NCBI GenBank assembly: GCA_030697525.1
Contig: JAUYPW010000026.1
Coordinates: forward strand, 1 to 42,883
DNA from: a bacterium
GTDB taxonomy: Bacteria > Patescibacteriota > Minisyncoccia > Sungbacterales > HO2-52-23
DNA length: 42,883 bases
Direction of reading: 5' to 3'
Below, piece after piece: positions 11,818 through 34,369 of the stretch (within the stretch, counting starts at the first letter, position 1; each line of letters begins with the position of its first letter). The notes under the pieces are model-generated. The model did not search any database. It had not been told where the DNA came from and worked only from the letters and a program-made list of their open reading frames with translations. A program made the position numbers and the translations under genes.

Positions 11818-11874
11818 ATTCCTAATATAACCATAAACAAAGCCATAAAGTAGCCTTGTGTATAAGTTTGTCTT

Positions 11875-11902
11875 TGACTTTTGAGTCTATATCTGATATA
11901 CT
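11875..11902 (+). promoter_or_regulatory. Sigma70-like promoter (TTGACT-16-TATACT) in the GT4/murB divergent intergenic region
   Basis: Near-consensus hexamers. It drives a short hairpin-rich transcript or a long murB leader. Confidence 0.45.
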
Positions 11903-11954
11903 GATTTTAGTGAGTGTTTTCGGGATTATTCCCGAACCTCTGATTTGTCCGGTG

Positions 11955-11995
11955 CAAAGCCCTCTTTCGAGGGTTTTGTGCTTTTTTGTTTTGGG
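11955..11995 (+). terminator. Intrinsic terminator/attenuator-like hairpin + U-run downstream of the promoter above
   Basis: caaagccctc-tttc-gagggttttg (9/10 bp) followed by TGCTTTTTTGTTTT. Confidence 0.45.
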
Positions 11996-12168
11996 TGCGG
12001 TTTTCTCGGGCATACCCGCTTTTTATGATTTTTTAAATAAAAAAGCCCCCGGGGGACCACGGGGGTTATACTCCTTTATTTGTCCTTAAGTGAGTGCCTG
12101 CCCGTGATCCCCAAGAGGCTCTATATATAGATTATTGCAAATCACTACAATTATGCAATAGTAATTAT

Positions 12169-13158
12169 ATGCTAGTTGAGATAAAAGAAAATATACCGAT
12201 TGCCCCATACACGGTGTATAAAATAGGCGGACCAGCCATTTTTTTTGTTGAGATAAAAAATTCGGAAGAACTTAAAGAAGCATTAAATTTTGCGGTAGAT
12301 AAGAATCTGCCGTTTTTTATTTTGGGCGCGGGATCAAATGTCCTAATTTCTGACCAAGGCTTTAATGGGTTGGTTATAAAAATATCGGGTGGAAATATTA
12401 AAGTTGATGGAGAAAGTCTCATGATCGATTCCGGAGTTATGATGGCAAGGGCCGTGGCAGAATCGGCCAAAGCGGGGCTTACTGGATTTGAGTGGGGGAT
12501 AGGGGTGCCGGGCACAGTCGGGGGGTCGGTGCGGGGGAATGCGGGGTGTTTTGGTAACGAGATGAGTCAAATACTTGAGCACACTCAAGTATTTGAAGTT
12601 AAAAGTGAAAAGTTAAAAGTGAAAAATTTAGGTAAAAATTCTGCTGGCAGAATTTTTGGATTAAGTAATAAAGAGTGTAAATTTAATTACAGGGATTCCG
12701 TTTTCAAGAAACACCCTGAATGGGTTATACTCTCAGCCACGTTAAAATTACAAAAAGGCGATCCCAAAGAAATCCAAGAAAAAATTAAAAAGTTCACAGC
12801 CGATAGAAGTGAGAAACAGGACATCGGAACAAAATCTTGCGGGTGTATTTTTAAAAATATAAAGTGGAGCGACACGAACAAAGCCGAGATACTGGAAAAG
12901 TTCTCCTTTTTGGAACAATTCAAAGATAGGCCGACAATCCCGGCTTCTTTTCTGATTGATCAAATCGGATTAAAAAACTTGAGAAAAGGCAAGATATTTA
13001 TCTCGCCCAAACATGCCAATTTTTTTGTGAATGAAGGAGGAGGAACGGCTGCAGAAGTAAAAATTCTAATAGAGACAGTAAAAGAAAAAATAAAAAATCA
13101 TTTTGGGCTGACACTTGAAGAAGAAATTCAGTATCTCGGAGACCATGATCCGCACTAG
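12169..13158 (+). CDS. murB: UDP-N-acetylenolpyruvoylglucosamine reductase
   Basis: FAD-binding FFILGAGSNVLIS, GVPGTVGGSVRGNAGCFG. The start at ATG 12169 (MLVEIKENI) is preferred over the upstream ATG 12094, which lies in AT-rich non-coding sequence. The last 7 codons lie inside a 26-bp inverted repeat. Confidence 0.8.
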   Translation: MLVEIKENIPIAPYTVYKIGGPAIFFVEIKNSEELKEALNFAVDKNLPFFILGAGSNVLISDQGFNGLVIKISGGNIKVDGESLMIDSGVMMARAVAESAKAGLTGFEWGIGVPGTVGGSVRGNAGCFGNEMSQILEHTQVFEVKSEKLKVKNLGKNSAGRIFGLSNKECKFNYRDSVFKKHPEWVILSATLKLQKGDPKEIQEKIKKFTADRSEKQDIGTKSCGCIFKNIKWSDTNKAEILEKFSFLEQFKDRPTIPASFLIDQIGLKNLRKGKIFISPKHANFFVNEGGGTAAEVKILIETVKEKIKNHFGLTLEEEIQYLGDHDPH

Positions 13159-13406
13159 TATCAGCTTTAGAAGCTAAAAAATGAGATGATTTCGCGGCAC
13201 GACGACGAAGGTGTGTGTTTACACACACCGAGGAGGAGTAACAAAGAAATCAACCATTTTTTAGCTTCCCCAGAGTGCGGGACAATTTTGACTATCTTCG
13301 GCGTTTCTTGTCGCTTGTGTATCTAAAGATACACTTCGCTCCTCGAGCCTTGAATATAGTCAAAATTGTCTCCGCTAAATTGATACTAGTGCGGATCATG
13401 GTCTCC
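13138..13406. repeat. Perfect 26-bp inverted repeat pair (13138-13163 / 13381-13406) bracketing a 217-bp multi-hairpin segment; MITE-like or structured RNA
   Basis: GGAGACCATGATCCGCACTAGTATCA and its exact reverse complement. Internal nested stems: gtgtgtg/cacacac, a 16-bp stem ggacaattttgactat/atagtcaaaattgtcc, and gtgtatc/gatacac. A U-run follows the 3' arm. Confidence 0.7.
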
Positions 13407-13454
13407 TAGGTTTTTAGATTTGTAATACGTTAAAAGTTTTGTTAATATTTATTC

Positions 13455-26303: not shown

Positions 26304-27080
26304 TTGGTGTACATAGTTGAAGTAAAAAACTTAACAAAGAAATTTAGATCCGTCACGGCTGTAGACGGCATTTCTTTTGGTTTGCCTCAAGGAAAAATAA
26401 TTGGCCTTTTGGGTCCAAACGGCGCGGGCAAAACAACCACTATTCAAATGTTGCTCGATTTGATAACTCCCACCTCCGGTTCCATCAGAATTTTTGGCAA
26501 AGAGCTACATTCTCACAGAGAAGAAATATTAAATAAGGTTAATTTTTCTTCTCCCTATGTGTCTTTGCCCTCCAACCTCAAGGTTTGGGAAAATCTTAAT
26601 GTTTTTGCCAATCTTTATGGGGTAAAAAATATAAAAGCAAAGATTGCCGAGTTGAGCGACCTTTTCGGCATAGAAGATTTTATGCAAAAGATGACCTCTC
26701 TTCTCTCCACTGGTCAGCTAACCCGCCTTAATCTAGCCAAAGCTTTTCTAAATGATCCGGAACTGCTTCTGCTGGACGAACCGACAGCATCGCTTGATCC
26801 GGATATTGCCGATCGTATCCGCAAAATGCTTAAAAAGGTCCAGCAGGACAAGGGGGTTACCATTCTTTATACTTCTCACAATATGGTAGAAGTTGAGGAG
26901 ATCTGTGATCAGATTATTTTTATAAATAAAGGGCGGATAGTGGACGAGGGTACCCCCACTGAACTGGTTAAGAAATACGGGCATCGCGACATGAACGACG
27001 TATTTTTGACCATCGTTAGAGAGGGGGAGGCTAAAGAGCTGGTAGTGGATATAAAAAAACACACGAATGAAGTGGCATAG
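26304..27080 (+). CDS. ABC transporter ATP-binding protein (ABC-2 exporter type)
   Basis: Walker A GPNGAGKTTT, signature LSTGQLTRL, Walker B LLLLDEPT. Confidence 0.85.
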   Translation: MVYIVEVKNLTKKFRSVTAVDGISFGLPQGKIIGLLGPNGAGKTTTIQMLLDLITPTSGSIRIFGKELHSHREEILNKVNFSSPYVSLPSNLKVWENLNVFANLYGVKNIKAKIAELSDLFGIEDFMQKMTSLLSTGQLTRLNLAKAFLNDPELLLLDEPTASLDPDIADRIRKMLKKVQQDKGVTILYTSHNMVEVEEICDQIIFINKGRIVDEGTPTELVKKYGHRDMNDVFLTIVREGEAKELVVDIKKHTNEVA

Positions 27081-27861
27081 AATAAAAGCCTTACTCATTA
27101 GATATATGTATCTAAACAAAAGAAGTCTGCCGCGGCTGATGGATATTTTTTATTGGCCTGTTTTGGATCTTTTGTTGTGGGGTTTTTTGAGTTTTTATTT
27201 AGAAAAACTTAACATGGGCAATCTGAATGTGGTTACTTTGCTTCTGGGAGCTATTATTTTTTGGGATTTGCTAAGTCAATCGCAAAGGGCGGTCGCGGTT
27301 TCTTTTTTGGAGGAAGTATGGGAGAAGAACCTTCTTAATTTATTTGTAGCGCCTCTACGGATAAGCGAATTTCTGGTATCTACAATTTTAATCGGTTTTT
27401 TCAGGGTGATTTTGGTCGGCTTGGTCATGGGTTCTCTGGGTCTGCTTTTTTATCATTTTAATATAATCGGACAATTTGGATTTTATTTGATAATTTTTTT
27501 GTTAAATCTTTTGATTTTTGGCTGGTCGTTGGGGCTTCTCATAATCGGGTTTATTTTACGTTTTGGAACCTCGGCGCAGATAATCGCTTTTGGTTTTATG
27601 GTTTTAATTCAGCCTTTCAGCGCGGTCTTTTATCCGGTTAGCGCTCTGCCGGAGAGTTTAAGATACATAGCTTATATTTTACCCTCCACCTATGTTTTTG
27701 AAGGCATGAGGGCGGTCATAGCCAGTTCGGCTTTTCCTTGGTCGCAACTCGGCTTAGCTCTCTTGACCAACGCAATTTATCTGGTGCTAACTTGCTGGTT
27801 TTTCTATCGCATGTTTGCGAGAATAAAAGAGAAGGGGACTATAATGAGATTGAATGATTGA
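27067..27861 (+). CDS. ABC-2 type transporter permease
   Basis: 6-TM permease overlapping the ATPase stop. Typical ABC-2 architecture. Confidence 0.7.
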   Translation: MKWHRIKALLIRYMYLNKRSLPRLMDIFYWPVLDLLLWGFLSFYLEKLNMGNLNVVTLLLGAIIFWDLLSQSQRAVAVSFLEEVWEKNLLNLFVAPLRISEFLVSTILIGFFRVILVGLVMGSLGLLFYHFNIIGQFGFYLIIFLLNLLIFGWSLGLLIIGFILRFGTSAQIIAFGFMVLIQPFSAVFYPVSALPESLRYIAYILPSTYVFEGMRAVIASSAFPWSQLGLALLTNAIYLVLTCWFFYRMFARIKEKGTIMRLND

Positions 27862-27867
27862 GAAAAT

Positions 27868-28033
27868 CACTTCGCTAGTTTCCTCGGCAGTCTTCTCGAA
27901 AACCCGTTCGTCTGCTCCTGCGGCAGACTTCTCTATATCGTCGCGACTGGGTTTGATTGCATAAAGCAATCAAACACCAAGCCCAGCCGCTCCTCAATGG
28001 TTTTCTCAAAGACTGCCTCGGACTAGCTCGGTG
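27868..28033. repeat. Structured palindromic intergenic element, full copy A (~165 nt)
   Basis: Outer long-range stem ggcagtctt..gaaaacc / ggttttc..aagactgcc. Inner hairpin gtctgc-TCCTGCG-gcagac. Hairpin gtttgattgc-ataaa-gcaatcaaac. Conserved segments gtcgtcgcga, ccaagc, cgctcctc. Homologous to 35465-35631. Confidence 0.7.
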
Positions 28034-28058
28034 AATAAGGTTTTTTTAAGGAAATTTT

Positions 28059-28655
28059 ATGGAAGACGAAAGGAAAGAAAAAATGAGGCAGATAAAAGAT
28101 GAGGTGGTGAACTTCAAAGGATCTCCGCTATATAAGGATCGGGTGCAAAATAGAAATCTTCCGGTAATAGGGGAGGGGAGCCACAATGCTAAGATAATGT
28201 TTGTTGGAGAAGCTCCGGGGAAAAATGAAGCCCAAACCGGAAGGCCATTTTGCGGAGCGGCGGGGAGAATACTGGACGAACTTCTACAATCAATCGGCAT
28301 GGATCGCAAAGAAGTTTATATTACTAATATAGTGAAGGATCGTCCGCCGCAAAACCGCGATCCTTTTCCGGAAGAAATAGCGGCGTATGCTCCGTATCTG
28401 GACAGGCAGATAGATATAATTCAGCCGGTAGTTGTTGCGACCCTTGGTAGATTTTCCATGAAGTACATAATGGATAAATTCGCATTGTCTCATGAAATTC
28501 AGTCCATCAGCCGGATTCATGGGCGAGTATTTGAAGCCGAAATTTCTTACGGCAAGGTAAAAATAATACCCATGTATCATCCGGCCACAGTTTTATATAA
28601 CCCGTCTCTTAAAGAGGATTTAAAAAAAGATTTCCAAGTTCTAGCCAAAAACTAA
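28059..28655 (+). CDS. Uracil-DNA glycosylase, family 4
   Basis: GEAPG motif (MFVGEAPGKNEAQTGRPFCGAAGRIL) and HPA(T) near the C-terminus. Confidence 0.8.
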   Translation: MEDERKEKMRQIKDEVVNFKGSPLYKDRVQNRNLPVIGEGSHNAKIMFVGEAPGKNEAQTGRPFCGAAGRILDELLQSIGMDRKEVYITNIVKDRPPQNRDPFPEEIAAYAPYLDRQIDIIQPVVVATLGRFSMKYIMDKFALSHEIQSISRIHGRVFEAEISYGKVKIIPMYHPATVLYNPSLKEDLKKDFQVLAKN

Positions 28656-28661
28656 GCATAG

Positions 28662-28690
28662 TTGACACAAACTACAATATCGGTTATACT
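28662..28690 (+). promoter_or_regulatory. Sigma70 consensus promoter (TTGACA-17-TATACT) of the RRM protein gene
   Basis: Perfect -35 and near-perfect -10 with 17-nt spacer. Confidence 0.6.
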
Positions 28691-28696
28691 GGACAT

Positions 28697-28837
28697 AGTT
28701 GTAAGTTTCTCGTTTTGTTTTCTCGGGCCCCAAACAGAACCTGCGGTTCTGACGGGGTAAACCTTGCCCAATTGGTGTAAGGCGGGAGACAGTAGAGAGG
28801 TCGCCTTACACTTATAAACAAGCAAATGCTTTTATAA
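28697..28837 (+). promoter_or_regulatory. Structured ~140-nt 5' leader of the RRM RNA-binding-protein gene
   Basis: Contains a gttttctcggg box, hairpin gaacc-tgc-ggttc, and a 10-bp stem gtgtaaggcg/cgccttacac with a 17-nt loop. Confidence 0.4.
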
Positions 28838-29200
28838 ATGGCAAAGAAATTATATATAGGTGGTCTGCCTTATAGCGTTACTGATGACCAGCTGAAAGAA
28901 GCCTTTTCCCAAGCGGGAGCGGTTGAATCAGCTACGGTTGTCATTGATAAATTCTCTGGTCGTTCCCGAGGTTTCGGCTTCGTGGAAATGGCTTCGGACG
29001 AAGACGCTGATGCGGCCATCAAAATGTGGAATGGTCAGGATTTCCAAGGACGCAAACTGACCGTCAATGAAGCTCGCCCCATGGAAGCTCGCGCCCCCCG
29101 AACAGGAGGTGCCGCTGGAGGTTTCCGAAGAGGAGGGGCAGGAGGAGATAGAGGCGGATTTGGCGGAGGCAGGAGAGATGACCGAGGAGGAAACTGGTAA
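28838..29200 (+). CDS. RRM-domain glycine-rich RNA-binding protein
   Basis: RNP2 LYIGGL, RNP1 RGFGFVEM, and a C-terminal RGG/Gly-rich tail. Confidence 0.85.
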   Translation: MAKKLYIGGLPYSVTDDQLKEAFSQAGAVESATVVIDKFSGRSRGFGFVEMASDEDADAAIKMWNGQDFQGRKLTVNEARPMEARAPRTGGAAGGFRRGGAGGDRGGFGGGRRDDRGGNW

Positions 29201-29207
29201 TTCCAAG

Positions 29208-29236
29208 AAAAAACACCCTAACGGGTGTTTTTTCTA
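29208..29236 (+). terminator. Rho-independent terminator of the RRM gene
   Basis: aacaccc-taac-gggtgtt followed by TTTTTC. Confidence 0.65.
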
Positions 29237-29271
29237 TTGGCGTATATTTTCCAATTTGTTAATATAGTAAT

Positions 29272-29514
29272 ATGATAGTTGTATATACTAAAACAGGATG
29301 TCCGTGGTGCGCGGAGGTGCTGGAGTTTTTAAGAGATAAAAAAATTGAATTTGAAGAAAAAGAGGTTTTGAAAAATCCTAAGTTTATGGAAGAATTGATG
29401 CAGAGGTCGGGGCAAAATAAAACACCGACTCTAGATGTTGGCGGAGACATACTAGCGGATACAGATATCAGAGCAGTGGAAAATTTTTTAAAAAATAAAG
29501 GAATAATAAATTAA
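29272..29514 (+). CDS. Glutaredoxin-like thiol-disulfide oxidoreductase
   Basis: 80 aa. MIVVYTKTGCPWCAEV with a CPWC active site and a thioredoxin-fold pattern. Confidence 0.75.
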   Translation: MIVVYTKTGCPWCAEVLEFLRDKKIEFEEKEVLKNPKFMEELMQRSGQNKTPTLDVGGDILADTDIRAVENFLKNKGIIN

Positions 29515-29519
29515 TTTTC

Positions 29520-29834
29520 ATGGAGCAAAACCAAACTCAACCAAGTAGTCCGGTTTCGGTGAGCAATGATTCGCTTATGCCTCATCAGGAACCGCATAAT
29601 GGAAATAGCCTGCCTACCGGACAGGCAGGCCAGGTAATACAACCTTCGGTTATTTCCCAAGCGCCAGTTGAGGTACGAGATTTTATAACTGTTTCCAAGA
29701 GCGATTTCGGAGTGATTGCGGAGCCAAAAAGCAAAAAATTGCCGGTGGTGGTTTTGGTGCTGGCGGGATTGATTGGTTTGTTTATACTGTATGAATATAT
29801 GCTGTACAGGTCGCTGATCAATCAAGGTATATAA
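29520..29834 (+). CDS. Hypothetical protein with a C-terminal TM anchor
   Basis: 104 aa. Polar N-terminus and a C-terminal hydrophobic helix. Confidence 0.4.
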   Translation: MEQNQTQPSSPVSVSNDSLMPHQEPHNGNSLPTGQAGQVIQPSVISQAPVEVRDFITVSKSDFGVIAEPKSKKLPVVVLVLAGLIGLFILYEYMLYRSLINQGI

Positions 29835-29844
29835 CTAAGTTAAA

Positions 29845-30153
29845 ATGACAGAAGGGAAATATCTTTGGACTCACCATGCGCGTGAGAAGATGAGGCATTA
29901 TCGGCTCACTGATGCTAGAATTAAAAGAATTATCAGACATCCGACTCGCATTGAGGAGGGTGTTTTGGAAAATGCCGTAGCTTGTATGCAACCCGCCGAA
30001 GGAAAAAAATATTCAGAGATTTGGACTATGTATTTGGTTTCAAAACCCAGCATTAGAATAATCACAGCTTGGCGTTATCCGGGCAAAAGTCCGGAAAGGG
30101 TTCCCGTGCCGGCCAATATTTTAAAAGAAGCTCGAAAATTAATTTATGGCTGA
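29845..30153 (+). CDS. DUF4258-like small protein (putative toxin-like component)
   Basis: HAREKMRHYRLTDARIKRII...ITAWRYP matches the H-A-x-E-R-M-x-x-R-x-I ... I-T-A-Y pattern of DUF4258. Confidence 0.45.
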   Translation: MTEGKYLWTHHAREKMRHYRLTDARIKRIIRHPTRIEEGVLENAVACMQPAEGKKYSEIWTMYLVSKPSIRIITAWRYPGKSPERVPVPANILKEARKLIYG

Positions 30154-30817
30154 AGGACTAATAAAAATATCCCCTTCGGGTATAAGCTCGCTACTAGAAT
30201 GTCCGCGTTGTCTTTGGATGCAATATAATGAGGCCATAAAAAGGCCGCGGGGGATTTTTCCGTCTTTGCCCGACGGTATGGATAATGTTTTTAAAAAATA
30301 TTTTGATGAATTCAGGGAGCAGGGCGGTCTGCCCCCGGAGATAGAAGGAAAAGTTGACGGAAAGCTATTTCCGGATTTAAAAAAATTAAACCAATGGCGT
30401 AATTTTGATTTTGGACGCGGGGGAATAAGAACTACCGTTCCTGAATTTAATATGGTTGTGGCCGGAGCTATAGACGATCTCCTGGTAGCGCCAGACGGCA
30501 GATATATACCTTTTGATTTTAAGACCAGAGGTTATCCGACCAAAGAGGATACTCACGAGCATTACAGATGCCAACTTGATTTATATGCCCTGCTTTTTGA
30601 AAAAAACGGGATGCCCGTGTCAGACCATGGGTATTTATTATTTTTCTGGCCGGAAACATATAGTTTGGGCATGGCCAACTTCAAAACAAATTTAATAAGA
30701 ATGGATGTCTCTCCAAGCCGGGGCTTTACTATATTAGATAAAGCTTATAGAATAATAACAAGTTCGAAACCGGAGTCGCATAAAGAGTGCGAATACTGTC
30801 TTTATAGGGGAGCATAG
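30146..30817 (+). CDS. PD-(D/E)XK-superfamily nuclease with N- and C-terminal CxxC pairs (Cas4/RecB-like fold)
   Basis: AIDDLLV...IPFDFKT gives a D-x(n)-D-x-K core. CPRC at the N-terminus and CEYC at the C-terminus. Overlaps the upstream ORF by 8 nt. Confidence 0.5.
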   Translation: MAEGLIKISPSGISSLLECPRCLWMQYNEAIKRPRGIFPSLPDGMDNVFKKYFDEFREQGGLPPEIEGKVDGKLFPDLKKLNQWRNFDFGRGGIRTTVPEFNMVVAGAIDDLLVAPDGRYIPFDFKTRGYPTKEDTHEHYRCQLDLYALLFEKNGMPVSDHGYLLFFWPETYSLGMANFKTNLIRMDVSPSRGFTILDKAYRIITSSKPESHKECEYCLYRGA

Positions 30818-30841
30818 CAACTTGAAAATAAGGAGGTGTAA

Positions 30842-31267
30842 ATGGACTCACAGACCTTATCGTCATTATGTGTAGGCGTTGCTTTCTCGGTTTTAATTGG
30901 TTTTGTGATTTTTTTTACCAGGCAAGCTAATCGTGAAGAAAATCTTCGAGATTCGGCGGAAAAAGATGATCTGCTTGGAACTGGAAACAAGATGATTGCG
31001 ACTCAGATAAAAAGGGATATCGTAGAAATCCGCAGGGAGGTGGATAAACTTATAGATTCCGCAGTTAAATTGAACGAATTATCTCAAGAAACACTTGAAA
31101 AACTTAGAGAAAGAGCTAAAGATGAGCCTATTACATCCGCTGAATTCAAAATGCTGGTAAGACAAACCCTGAAAGAGTTCCAGGAAATTAGAAATATGCA
31201 TCCCGACAAGGATTATGAGTATTTAGTAGGTAGGGCAATCAAGATTTTATTACAGCTGGCTTATTAG
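30842..31267 (+). CDS. Hypothetical membrane-anchored coiled-coil protein
   Basis: N-terminal TM and a charged helical remainder. RBS AAGGAGGTG. Confidence 0.45.
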   Translation: MDSQTLSSLCVGVAFSVLIGFVIFFTRQANREENLRDSAEKDDLLGTGNKMIATQIKRDIVEIRREVDKLIDSAVKLNELSQETLEKLRERAKDEPITSAEFKMLVRQTLKEFQEIRNMHPDKDYEYLVGRAIKILLQLAY

Positions 31268-31381
31268 TCGGCTGTTTTATTTTGTGATTGTGGCACGGGG
31301 TGTGGATAAGTAGTCTTTATATAACGCGCAAAAAAATATAACATGGAAAATATAACCATTAATTAATTTATACGAGAACAT

Positions 31382-31624
31382 ATGAAAAATACCATGAAGT
31401 GGGTTTGGCTTGTCGTCGCTTTGGTGGTGGGTCTTGGCGGCGGCTATTGGATGGGAAATGTAAAAGGAGTGGCCAAAGAAAAAGCCGCGGCAGAAGCCAA
31501 GAGAAAGACCGCTGAACAGGAAGCGGCTACGGCGGTTAATCCTTTTGAGCAGGCCACAGTAAATCCTTTTGAAAAGTCTCCGACCAATCCTTTTGATAAC
31601 GTAAAGGTTAACCCGTTTGAGTAA
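31382..31624 (+). CDS. Small exported peptide with four tandem (V/T)NPF(E/D) repeats
   Basis: 80 aa. N-terminal TM/signal. Lys/Ala/Glu-rich helix followed by AVNPFE-QATVNPFE-KSPTNPFD-NVKVNPFE. Confidence 0.5.
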   Translation: MKNTMKWVWLVVALVVGLGGGYWMGNVKGVAKEKAAAEAKRKTAEQEAATAVNPFEQATVNPFEKSPTNPFDNVKVNPFE

Positions 31625-31639
31625 TTAACCCCCAAAAAA

Positions 31640-34285
31640 ATGAAAAAAAGTGTATTTTTATCAATAATATTCAGTATTTTTATAGTCGGCTTTGCGTGGT
31701 ATGTATCAGCCGCCTCAATCTTTGATATAGAATTTCCCATACCGGAACTTGGCAACTGTGCCGATAAAGCGGAGTGTAAAACCTATTGCGATGATTTCGA
31801 GCACAAAAGCGAGTGTGCCACCTTTGCCAAAAAATATGGTCTAGTTGATGAAAAAACAGCCGCCAGAGCGGAAAAATTACCCGAAACAGGTCCAGGAGGA
31901 TGCAAGGGAGAAAATGAGTGTCGCAATTACTGTGAGAGCGCTGATCACGCTGACGAATGCTTTGCTTTTGGTGAAGAACACAATTTAGTAAGCGATACTG
32001 ATAAAAAGAAATTTAAAGAGTTTAAAGAAACAGCTGGCCCAGGCGGATGTAAGGGGCCAAACGAATGCCGCGCCTATTGTGAAGATTCAGCTCATGTAGA
32101 CGAGTGTGTGGATTTTGGGCAAAAAAAAGGATTTATATCCGATAAGCAAGCCGAAATTGCCAAAAAAGTTAATAAAGGCGGGGGGCCGGGGGGTTGTAAA
32201 TCTGAACAAGAGTGCCGATCCTATTGCGAAAATCCCGATAATCTCGGGGGTTGTATGGACTTTGCCGAGCAGAATGGATTTATCAACAAAGAACAAGCTA
32301 CGCTTGTAAGAAAAGCGGGTTTTGGCGGGGGGCCTGGTGGATGTAGGGGGGCTGAACAGTGCCGTGATTATTGTGAAGACCCTGCTCATCAGCAGGAATG
32401 TATTGATTTTGGGGAAAAGAACGGCATGATGAGTTCTGAAGAAGCGACACAGGCTAGAAAATTTGCCGGAAAAACTGGGCCGGGAGGATGTACTGGTAGC
32501 CAATGCAGGGAATTTTGTGAGAATCCAGAAAATGGAGATGCTTGTCTTGAATTTGCTGAAAAAGAGAATTTGATCCCGCAGGCGGAACTCCAAAAAGCTA
32601 GAAAGTTTATGCAAGCTTCTCGCGAAGGAGGTCCTGGTGGGTGTAAGGGGGCGCAATGCCGCGCATATTGTGAAGATCCGGAACACCAGGACGAATGTTT
32701 TAGCTTTGCCAAAAATCAAGGTTTGGTTGGGGCTGAAGAGCAGCAATCTTTTGACGCCGGAAAGAAGATAAGAGAAAAAATGCAGCAAGCAGGAGGCCCC
32801 GGAGGTTGCAAAAATGATAATGAATGCCGAACTTATTGCACCAACCTAAGTAATGTAGAAGAATGTATCGCTTTCGGAGCTACCCACGGAGGAGTTTCTC
32901 CGGAGAAAGTAAAACAGATGCTTCAGCAGTTTACCCAAAATCGTTATGAGGCTCAAGGAGGTTTCCAGCCCCCACAGGATTTTAGCCAATTTCAACAAGG
33001 AGCTTTCCGGAAATTTGAAGAATTTAGACAGCTGGAAACAGAATTTCGCGGCAAATTTCAAGGCCCTCCGGGAGGTTTTCCGGGAGGAGGTGGTGAATTT
33101 CCCGGCGGGGGAGCGACCGGCGGACAATTTCCTGGCGGAAGTTTCGGGGGTCCACAAGGAGGTTTTGTGGGTCCGGGGGGATGCTCATCTCCAGCAGAAT
33201 GCATAAAACATTGCTCTGAAAACAGGGAAGAATGTTTCGGTGGATCTCAAGGAGGAGAATCTGGTGGTCCCGGTGGAGATTTTGAGGATGAAGAATTTGG
33301 AGGGCCGCCTGGTTTCGGTGGTGGGTTTGGTGGGGGATTCGGCGGGTTTCCACCGCCAGGCCAAGACCAAGGAGGATTTTTTGGTGGAAAAGGTGGTCCT
33401 CAACTAAGGACAAACATAGTGCACGAATTTAAAGAAGGGGATATACCAGATAATTTCCAACAGCTTCCGGAAGAACAAAGAAAAGATTTCTTTAAGCAAA
33501 AATTTGAAGAGTTCAGGGGTGGACCACCGGCTGGATTCCCCGGTGGTCAGCAAGGCCAATTCCCGAGAGGTTCACAACAACAAGATGGCATGGGTTTTCC
33601 CGGGGGTCAGCAGAGAGGTGGATTTCCTGGATTTAATGAAGGAGGATTTAACGGGGAACGCGAAGAAGAATTTAAAAAAGAGTTTGAACAACAAGGAGGA
33701 CAGTTTTCGGGCAAAGGGGCAACCGGTGGTCCGCCAGCTGGCGGGTTCCCGGGCGGGTCTCAACAGGGGCAATTCCCCAATAGAACTGGAGGATTTCCTA
33801 GTGGTCAGCAAGGTGGTTTTCCTGGTAGCGGCGCAACGGGAGGACAGTTTCCCGGAGAAACACGTCAGCCATTTGAAGGTATAAAGCCGGTTGAAGGAAC
33901 TCCGGGAATATTCAATCAGACCCAACCACACGAGGGAGGTTTTCAACAACCATCTGGTAGTCCGCCAGCTGGCGGGTTTATCCAGCCCTCATCAGGAGGA
34001 TTTCAACCCCAATCAGGAGGAACGTTTAATCAGCCGCAGGGAGATTTTGGAGGCACCTTCCAACAACCCTCTGGAGGAACCTTTCAGCCTCCACCGAGCG
34101 GCGGCACATTTGAATCTGCTCCGCCACCATCGGGAGGAGGAACATTCTCACCTCCGCCTTCAGGAGACGGGGGTGGTACCTTTCAGCCTCCGCCAAGCGG
34201 AACTTTCCAGCCCCCTCCCTCCGGAGCGGCTCCCAGAAAAAGCTTGTTTGGCGGTCTTGTCGATTTCTTCGGGCTTAAAAAATAA
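31640..34285 (+). CDS. Large secreted repeat protein: signal peptide + nine tandem ~50-aa 4-Cys modules + ~350-aa G/F/P/Q-rich low-complexity tail
   Basis: Module consensus GPGGC-x4-5-C-R-x-Y-C-E-x8-C-x-F(G/A). The tail has GGFPGG(Q)QG(Q)FP, FGG and (QPPPSGGTF)n repeats. Hairpin terminator downstream. Confidence 0.7.
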   Translation: MKKSVFLSIIFSIFIVGFAWYVSAASIFDIEFPIPELGNCADKAECKTYCDDFEHKSECATFAKKYGLVDEKTAARAEKLPETGPGGCKGENECRNYCESADHADECFAFGEEHNLVSDTDKKKFKEFKETAGPGGCKGPNECRAYCEDSAHVDECVDFGQKKGFISDKQAEIAKKVNKGGGPGGCKSEQECRSYCENPDNLGGCMDFAEQNGFINKEQATLVRKAGFGGGPGGCRGAEQCRDYCEDPAHQQECIDFGEKNGMMSSEEATQARKFAGKTGPGGCTGSQCREFCENPENGDACLEFAEKENLIPQAELQKARKFMQASREGGPGGCKGAQCRAYCEDPEHQDECFSFAKNQGLVGAEEQQSFDAGKKIREKMQQAGGPGGCKNDNECRTYCTNLSNVEECIAFGATHGGVSPEKVKQMLQQFTQNRYEAQGGFQPPQDFSQFQQGAFRKFEEFRQLETEFRGKFQGPPGGFPGGGGEFPGGGATGGQFPGGSFGGPQGGFVGPGGCSSPAECIKHCSENREECFGGSQGGESGGPGGDFEDEEFGGPPGFGGGFGGGFGGFPPPGQDQGGFFGGKGGPQLRTNIVHEFKEGDIPDNFQQLPEEQRKDFFKQKFEEFRGGPPAGFPGGQQGQFPRGSQQQDGMGFPGGQQRGGFPGFNEGGFNGEREEEFKKEFEQQGGQFSGKGATGGPPAGGFPGGSQQGQFPNRTGGFPSGQQGGFPGSGATGGQFPGETRQPFEGIKPVEGTPGIFNQTQPHEGGFQQPSGSPPAGGFIQPSSGGFQPQSGGTFNQPQGDFGGTFQQPSGGTFQPPPSGGTFESAPPPSGGGTFSPPPSGDGGGTFQPPPSGTFQPPPSGAAPRKSLFGGLVDFFGLKK
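31757..33240 (+). repeat. In-frame tandem DNA repeats encoding the 4-Cys modules (approximate bounds)
   Basis: Nine diverged copies of a ~150-nt unit visible as recurring ggnccnggnggntg(y)aa(r)gg...tgccg...tattg(y)ga. Confidence 0.6.
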
Positions 34286-34300
34286 ATCTTCGAGATTACT

Positions 34301-34338
34301 AAAATCAGTCTGATGGCTATCGGACTGATTTTATTTTT
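34301..34338 (+). terminator. Rho-independent terminator of the large repeat-protein gene
   Basis: aaaatcagtc-tgatggctatcg-gactgatttt followed by ATTTTTAA. Confidence 0.6.
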
Positions 34339-34369
34339 AAGGTACACTATGATATTATTTTCTTAAGTT

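Follow-up and report, generated by a model that had tools for sequence, protein, structure and literature searches.

The closest described counterparts of the sequences reported here are the interspersed palindromic repeats of other bacteria. ERIC (or IRU) elements of enterobacteria (~127 bp) are long imperfect palindromes which lie between genes in transcription units, lack a transposase or a target duplication, and are expected to form an RNA hairpin once transcribed. REP sequences and their BIME and REPIN arrangements, with which RAYT proteins are associated, are extragenic, hairpin-forming and located past stop codons, carry a GTAG/CGTC tag, and may have two inverted conserved units which form the base of a long hairpin, while the BOX elements of Streptococcus pneumoniae and the Correia-type MITEs are modular, combining conserved end and central boxes with replaceable segments, stable predicted folds and intergenic, co-transcribed positions. 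In transcripts, copies of REP and ERIC form barriers at 3' ends, terminate transcription weakly or provide processing sites, and active MITE or REPIN families usually have many near-identical copies. The genomes of CPR bacteria are tiny and tightly packed, and their non-coding elements are little known; the literature searches yielded no description of such elements in CPR.

The window analyzed here, that is, the whole contig of 42,883 bp, carries mainly plus-strand housekeeping genes, among them those for glycosyltransferases, murB, hpf, secA, an ABC transporter, uracil-DNA glycosylase (UDG), an RRM protein, secDF and a sigma factor, and its proteins have homologs annotated as Sungbacteria, Sungiibacteriota, Wildermuthbacteria or Parcubacteria. 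Genes for a transposase, RAYT, integrase or reverse transcriptase were not found on the contig, nor was a tRNA. It harbors two elements of ~165 nt each, A and B, which are situated as follows.

17384 to 20050: SecA (protein MDP3710672.1), whose closest homolog is 74% identical and belongs to the relative L133
27067 to 27861, plus strand: ABC-2 permease gene, with its stop codon TGA at 27859 to 27861, 5 nt from the first paired base of A (27867)
27867 to 28034, plus strand: element A, whole, from P1 base to P1 base (MFE fold; covariance model R1, 153 bits over 27874 to 28027)
28059 to 28655, plus strand: UDG gene, starting 24 nt past the end of A
34370 to 35464, plus strand: Trypsin_2 protease gene, whose stop codon TAA at 35462 to 35464 abuts B
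35461 to 35632, plus strand: element B, whole (MFE fold; covariance model R1, 147 bits over 35473 to 35621)
35665 to 35692, plus strand: promoter-like site TTGACT-16-TATTAT, with TG, downstream of B

As the sequence-only reading had noted, both copies lie just past stop codons: they start 0 to 6 nt beyond them, are sense to the flanking genes, and are each located between a stop codon and the following gene or promoter. Their contexts are otherwise unrelated, being permease/UDG for A and protease/hypothetical for B. Because the UDG gene follows A so closely and the scan revealed no promoter-like site between the two, A is probably intercistronic, while the promoter-like site past B assigns that copy to the untranslated 3' end of the protease transcript. 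This gene context favors the plus strand as the transcribed strand of both elements.

That A and B are collinear homologs in the same orientation, as proposed from the letters of the sequence, was borne out by alignment. They align locally with a score of 43, compared with 16.4±2.3 (maximum 28) for 2000 dinucleotide shuffles, and random segments of the window align to A with a maximum score of 21. Six collinear blocks are common to the two copies (TCGCTrGTTTyCTCGGCA, TTCGnCnGCTCCTGCGGCnGnC, TCGTCGCGA, ACCAAGC, CGCTCCTC and TGCCTCGrmCyAGC), which, together with a score ~11 standard deviations above the shuffles, indicates shared ancestry and not convergence. The conserved segment reported earlier does exist as a shared block, although it consists of the 9 nt TCGTCGCGA and not of GTCGTCGCGA, A having a preceding A. 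Overall identity is ~57%; A and B are, therefore, not the near-identical recent duplicates that had been considered, and a plain, recently active MITE is likewise not supported. A coding-potential check found no conserved open reading frame or start codon across the two copies, and all open six-frame translations of A and B, combined in a chimeric query so as to reveal copies within called ORFs, had no match at E ≤ 10 among 5.8 billion proteins.

The long imperfect outer stem ascribed to both copies is supported by folding, with z values of about -8.7. Element A folds at -68.0 kcal/mol on the plus strand (z -8.7 against shuffles) and at -79.5 kcal/mol on the minus strand (z -8.2), and the corresponding values for B are -74.2 kcal/mol (z -8.75) and -85.5 kcal/mol (z -11.2). 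The predicted architecture of both is a stem, P1, of 37 to 40 bp which closes a three-way junction, and its parts are assigned below in the order in which they are met.

27867 to 27904, plus strand: A, P1 5' arm, reading TCACT, TC, GCTAG, a TT bulge, TCC, the TC loop, GGCAGTCTT, CTC and GAAAACC
27910 to 27928, plus strand: A, P2 hairpin GTCTGC-TCCTGCG-GCAGAC with the conserved loop
27938 to 27946, plus strand: A, conserved TCGTCGCGA, comprising J2/3 and the 5' side of P3
27943 to 27990, plus strand: A, P3 domain, reading GCG(A)-CTGG, the variable hairpin TTTGATTGC-ATAAA-GCAATCAAA, the bulge ACCAAGC (27976 to 27982) and CCAG-C-CGC
27988 to 27998, plus strand: A, conserved CGCTCCTC and junction strand J3/1
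27999 to 28034, plus strand: A, P1 3' arm, then AATAAGGTTTTTTT
35468 to 35504, plus strand: B, P1 5' arm, reading TTATCGCTGG, TTT, TC, the TC loop and GGCAA-C-CCAAT-C-TGCAGACA
35511 to 35529, plus strand: B, P2 hairpin GGCCGC-TCCTGCG-GCGGCC
35540 to 35548, plus strand: B, conserved TCGTCGCGA
35545 to 35583, plus strand: B, P3 domain, reading GCGA-TTT, TCACCAA-AAGA-TTGGTGA, the bulge ACCAAGC (35570 to 35576) and AAA-TCGC
35581 to 35592, plus strand: B, conserved CGCTCCTC and junction strand J3/1
35593 to 35632, plus strand: B, P1 3' arm, then the U-rich ATTATTT

At the base of P1 both copies keep GCTrG/CyAGC, a T bulge of 2 to 3 nt in the 5' arm, two to three pairs, a TC/TC internal loop and GGCA/TGCC, while the distal 15 to 20 pairs differ entirely in sequence between A and B. 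The internal hairpin with an identical loop and a co-varied stem (gtctgc-TCCTGCG-gcagac in A, ggccgc-TCCTGCG-gcggcc in B), pointed out in the sequence-only reading, corresponds to P2, in which a stem of 6 bp carries the 7-nt loop TCCTGCG, invariant between the copies. The junction strand J2/3 ends in TCGTC, and P3 opens with GCGA.../...TCGC. The second hairpin, also correctly recognized as different in sequence between the copies (gtttgattgc-ataaa-gcaatcaaac in A, ttcaccaa-aaga-ttggtgaa in B), is held within P3, where the invariant ACCAAGC constitutes a 3' bulge; because this hairpin sits inside a larger conserved helix, the core of the element is a three-way junction. J3/1 begins with TCCTC, so that GCTCCT occurs twice per element, in loop or unpaired contexts. 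Helix lengths vary between A and B, and the junction strands are kept. U-rich tracts follow the stems, GGTTTTTTT being located 7 nt past A and TTTATTATTT directly past B; the long stems were not called by the terminator scan, and ordinary short terminators are present elsewhere on the contig. A reading of the minus-strand stem base as a kink-turn was rejected, as the bulge and the tandem G·A are separated by two to three pairs.

Compensatory substitutions preserving the helices, which had been put forward as the signature of a functional structured RNA, are more extensive than claimed. In a structure-guided alignment of the two sequences, partly circular in that the variable helices were aligned by structure, each of the 46 pairs is Watson-Crick in A as well as in B, every cell with letters on both sides being a standard pair, and 19 of them, in six helices, have changed on both sides, with none changed on one side, none broken and no G·U pair. 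The compensated-pair values of A and B were attained by none of 500 shuffles, a figure which refers to two sequences and an alignment fitted to structure, and when the 3' partner was slid by one to three columns as a control, pairing fell to 26 to 45%. Among the 21 pairs that are anchored by conserved flanks, five are changed at both positions, and single-sided changes are absent. Identical columns are more frequent at unpaired positions (45/68, 66%) than at paired ones (44/92, 48%), and such a concentration of conservation in unpaired positions, with freely varying helix sequences, is classically expected of functional structured RNA. As the helices have remained complementary despite replacement of their sequence, and the unpaired motifs have been kept, a non-neutral process has maintained the helices; with only two sequences, no significance can be assigned to the covariation.

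The distribution of these changes over the strands bears on the molecule concerned. Selected RNA helices as a rule admit G·U pairs and are asymmetric between strands, while strand-symmetric Watson-Crick complementarity is a property of DNA palindromes, arising through recognition of a folded single strand or through arm-to-arm templated repair (quasipalindrome correction). G·U pairs are equally scarce in the MFE folds of the two strands of A and B, and in both copies folding is ~11 kcal/mol more favorable on the minus strand, opposite to the coding strand of the genes; the TC/TC loop, which is a stabilizing tandem G·A on the minus strand, probably contributes to this advantage. Compensation which is exclusively Watson-Crick, lacks G·U pairs and shows no strand bias is, therefore, more typical of a DNA palindrome than of a selected RNA helix, and the better minus-strand fold together with the absence of a G·U strand bias fits a palindrome constrained on both strands.

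The outcome which the sequence-only reading had named as refuting it, a lack of further copies, was obtained within the reach of the searches: the contig, the relatives and the public collections, with GTDB represented by the 118 loci listed, yielded no third copy. Searches of the contig with nhmmer, blastn and the calibrated covariance model R1, with filters off, returned only A and B, at 153 and 147 bits, respectively. The proposed check against Rfam gave no match for either copy: there were 0 matches at gathering thresholds for the whole window and the loci of four relatives, and at E ≤ 10 A and B retrieved only noise of 11 to 15 bits from snoRNA and miRNA models. The pattern GCTCCTGCGGC-N6-24-TCGTCGCGA matched at least 118 loci in GTDB genome contigs, the source genome being unsampled among the matches listed; BLAST of A and B against all 118 loci listed gave no match at E ≤ 1e-3, and the Patescibacteria locus inspected among the listed matches was a chance match within a coding region. 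A three-motif pattern retrieved six matches from JGI metagenomes, all of them chance matches in coding regions. In viral contigs, the two-motif pattern used for GTDB matched 4 loci and a looser pattern 117 loci, and a P3-domain pattern matched none. An nhmmer profile of A and B, applied to 253 fetched loci, matched only the Logan contig L119 of the same organism, and blastn in distant mode of A and B against phages and plasmids gave no match. Besides the contig itself, just short identical Logan contigs of SRR13727529 were found. A candidate paralog from the same MAG, MDP3727444.1, was discarded because it derives from a different MAG. L119, from SRR13727529, is 100% identical to window positions 24370 to 35530 over the 11.2 kb fetched and ends at 35530, 66 nt into B and right past the P2 hairpin, where an assembly-graph branch from another B-like copy or variant may be located.

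Four relatives were compared, namely, L131 (GCA_964546255.1), L132, L133 (GCA_964358425.1) and L135 (CP066690.1, Candidatus Sungiibacteriota). The closest of these, L133, is syntenic over most of the window (Wzy...murB-hpf...secA-DUF5674...UDG-RRM-Grx...PDDEXK...secD). No A/B element is present at syntenic or nearby sites in L133, L131, L132 or L135, and R1 found no match in their ~81 kb. Gene order differs among the genomes exactly at A, between the ABC transporter and UDG, and at B, between the protease and three small genes; L131 keeps UDG...PDDEXK and an 881-aa homolog, while L133 keeps UDG-RRM-Grx...PDDEXK. L133 also lacks a counterpart of a second palindrome of the window, a 275-nt structure between murB and hpf (element C, see below), its murB-hpf spacer containing an ordinary small terminator. 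In L135, an unrelated 152-nt element (2196 to 2347) with a 21-bp closing stem and a multi-branched fold (z -8.25) lies directly past murB. C and the L135 element, both long-stem palindromes past murB, show that structured palindromic insertions of unrelated sequence recur at gene ends in this clade. L135 bears a second long inverted repeat upstream of murB (848 to 989), and in L131 G+C-rich palindromes of 23 to 31 nt, 250 nt apart, are located at 19047 to 19341, within the 3' part of a DUF87/TraG-like ATPase gene.

We tentatively propose, with somewhat less than even confidence, that a lineage-restricted family of intergenic imperfect-palindrome repeats, of the same general kind as REPIN/BIME, ERIC, BOX and MITE sequences, includes A and B as two old and diverged members. 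This proposal is supported by structure and homology above chance, by the compensatory changes, by the absence of a G·U strand bias together with the better minus-strand fold, by the unrelated contexts of the two copies, by their absence in relatives, by the recurrence of other, unrelated palindromes past genes in the clade and by the lack of an Rfam match. Counting against it are the small number of copies (two in 42.9 kb, ~57% identical), the absence of a target-site duplication and of a transposase or RAYT on the contig, the conservation of unpaired positions, the sense placement past stop codons, and the partial circularity of the structure-guided alignment. The inverted termini typical of MITEs are conserved in both copies (GCTrG.../...CyAGC and GGCA/TGCC). 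No direct repeat flanks A or B; the flanks AAAAT... and ...ATAA are common to the two elements and are not duplicated within either copy. They share no GTAG/CGTC tag of the REP type, their ends reading TCGCTAG/TCGCTGG. Since A and B thus depart from MITEs (target duplication), REP (tag), attC sites and every Rfam family, they would represent a new family of this general kind and no named one.

In this proposed repeat family, the element would have arisen and spread as DNA. Its complementarity would be kept at the DNA level, either through a mobilizing or recombining protein that recognizes the folded single strand or through arm-to-arm templated repair, and the conserved boxes would serve as protein recognition sites. 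Located within transcription units, the element would be transcribed with the upstream gene, and the resulting RNA, a long stem followed by a U-rich stretch, may secondarily function as a 3'-end barrier, weak terminator or RNase III-type processing site. The ERIC-type placement, the lack of an evident transposase or target duplication and the expected RNA hairpin listed at the outset apply, by description, to A and B; the differences are the apparent absence of any sequence relation, the other phylum, the branched three-way-junction center with conserved loops, and the presence of two copies which are more diverged than is usual for ERIC. With REP, BIME and REPIN sequences they share, in addition to position and hairpin formation, Watson-Crick helices consistent with single-strand DNA recognition and the inverted conserved units at the base of a long hairpin, but they lack the end tag, no RAYT is encoded on the contig, and their conserved central junction has no REPIN counterpart. 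The likeness to BOX and Correia-type elements concerns modularity, folding and position; A and B have no sequence similarity to them, no terminal TA or other duplication, a lower copy identity and no visible series of subfamilies. The structural claim of the sequence-only reading stands. Between the alternatives it offered, an ncRNA or a REP/BIME/MITE-like family, the evidence (Watson-Crick-only pairing, no strand bias and no third copy within the searches) does not tip the balance toward the ncRNA. A repeat family which keeps so elaborate a fold over deep divergence would be unusual in a CPR genome. As mobile or recombinogenic DNA, the element would point to a mobilization system not seen so far, placed at sites of differing gene order among relatives; as an RNA, it would be a rare lineage-specific regulatory RNA in the CPR radiation. 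The weight of either finding is limited by its basis of two copies on one metagenome-assembled contig.

It is possible, if rather unlikely, that A and B are instead paralogs of a genuinely new structured RNA, in which P1 would carry a three-way junction that displays the ACCAAGC bulge and exposes GCUCCU at two places, the P2 loop (UCCUGCG) and J3/1 (CGCUCCUC). Such an RNA would derive from the upstream mRNA, either forming its 3' end or arising from it by processing. It might act by pairing of its anti-Shine-Dalgarno-like CUCCU with ribosome-binding sites or by binding a protein, for instance the RRM protein, whose gene (28838 to 29200) lies 0.8 kb downstream of A. The more specific version, an undescribed class of RNA in Sungbacteria-like CPR which is released from mRNA 3' ends and acts in trans on ribosome-binding sites or as an RRM ligand, is regarded as doubtful; if the minus strand were active instead, it would expose AGGA/GAGGAG motifs and the tandem G·A loop. 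In favor of this explanation are the stronger conservation of unpaired blocks than of helices, the 19 compensated pairs without a broken one in six helices, the retention of junction strands while helix lengths differ, and the sense orientation directly past stops; the leader of the RRM gene, moreover, has an extra hairpin whose CCUGCGG loop is preceded by GUUUUCUCGG, in a stretch absent from the L133 leader. That last link is weak, the leader scoring only 5.4 bits with R1 (E ~9), and the RNA explanation has to contend with the lack of G·U pairs and one-sided changes, the better fold of the minus strand, the absence of a shared gene association, a covariation to which, with two sequences, no significance can be given, and the lack of homologs in the four relatives, JGI metagenomes, viral contigs, phages, plasmids and Rfam families. 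Its nearest described models would be the multicopy sRNAs with C/U-rich seed loops (LhrC, Rsa and RoxS types), which A and B would resemble as paralogs that expose CUCCU-like motifs, both in a loop and in a single-stranded stretch, and have variable helices; unlike those, they have no independent promoter or clean terminator, and a closing stem of 37 to 40 bp is atypical.

The same all-Watson-Crick helices, combined with a position immediately past open reading frames and in their orientation, recall integron attC sites, and A and B might accordingly be folded single-strand DNA recombination sites at which a recombinase encoded elsewhere shuffles gene blocks. Structure prevails over sequence in both, the conserved stem base of A and B has extrahelical T's and an unpaired spacer (the TC/TC loop), the distal part is variable and branched, and both copies mark gene-order differences from relatives (ABC transporter/UDG and protease/small genes). 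We nevertheless consider this improbable: RYYYAAC/GTTRRRY boxes are absent from the ends on either strand, no integrase (IntI) and no cassette or cassette array is present on the contig, and the apical junction is conserved, whereas the terminal structures of attC are variable. The 7.4 kb separating A and B contain ~10 genes, several of them in an order conserved with relatives, and so do not form a cassette. Still less probable is the view that the elements are oversized terminators or mRNA-stabilizing hairpins which evolved in place and resemble each other by convergence or chance; the U-rich tracts past both stems and the position of B between a stop codon and the following promoter-like site would suit it, but the six shared blocks and the alignment score reflect common ancestry, the long stems escape the terminator scan while ordinary short terminators occur elsewhere on the contig, and a gene without its own promoter starts 24 nt past A. 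A divergent housekeeping RNA, either 6S or a Y-RNA- or vault-RNA-like partner of a nearby vault-protein homolog, seems the least credible of these explanations. In its length of ~165 nt and in its long closing stem around an open center the element bears a loose resemblance to 6S RNA, and a major vault protein homolog is encoded 3.7 kb upstream of A; yet the center is a three-way junction and not a bubble, no Rfam model for 6S, Y RNA, vault RNA or others matches at E ≤ 10, no TROVE or Ro protein was seen on the contig, and the absence of the element in the relatives examined argues against it. Readings as SECIS, retron, DGR or omega-RNA were dismissed, as the partner gene or signal is missing.

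Parts of the conserved blocks recur on the contig outside A and B. The motif TTTYCTCGG is present 8 times against 1.3 expected, at sites which include 12001, 27879, 28718 and 35478, and, with one T fewer, 41999; those in intergenic regions lie without exception on the plus strand, each immediately before the GG-starting 5' arm of a hairpin. Five candidates, C (13135 to 13409), D (28706 to 28775), E (24160 to 24215), F (41994 to 42060) and the site at 12000, carry GTTTyCTCGG or CCTCG by their stem bases, and were not accepted as family members because R1 gives those it lists only 5 to 8 bits, which is not significant. E, past the vault-protein gene, has a stem base (CTCGGCT...GGCCTCGCTAGG) which resembles that of A and B (R1 7.0 bits, E ~3, not significant). 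F, directly past the stop of the DUF8128 gene, resembles them by eye at its stem base (GTTTCTCGGGTAT...ATAGCCTCGACCCGC) and is absent among the R1 matches listed at E ≤ 10. C is a 275-nt super-palindrome between murB and hpf/raiA (z -15), in which arms of 29 nt, 97% complementary, enclose two hairpins of ~90 nt each; its 5' arm comprises the last eight codons of murB, including the stop, and a TTTTT run follows its 3' arm. It contains TCGCTCCTC, as do A and B, and its score with R1 is not significant; its CTCGG lies within conserved murB codons, and Rfam at E ≤ 10 returned nothing for it.

In front of the 140-nt leader of the RRM gene (28697 to 28837) lies a strong promoter-like site, TTGACA-17-TATACT. 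The leader start, TGTAAGT.TTTCTCGTT, and a hairpin, GTGTAAGGCG...CGCCTTACAC, are conserved in L133, from which an insert of ~45 to 60 nt (GGGCCCC...CAGAAC-CTGCG-GTTCTG...GGGG...GCCC) is absent. The vault-protein homolog (21632 to 24127) is a protein of 831 aa with Vault_3 and MVP_shoulder domains, residues 329 to 783 of which match solved eukaryotic major vault proteins (E 3e-15), and it is unusual for a CPR bacterium. At 11874 to 11990, in a divergent intergenic region, a promoter-like TTGACT-17-TATACT with TG is followed by two hairpins, a 14-bp terminator-like stem and a T run; this region, which has no Rfam match, is a candidate for a small RNA of ~80 nt or for a murB leader.
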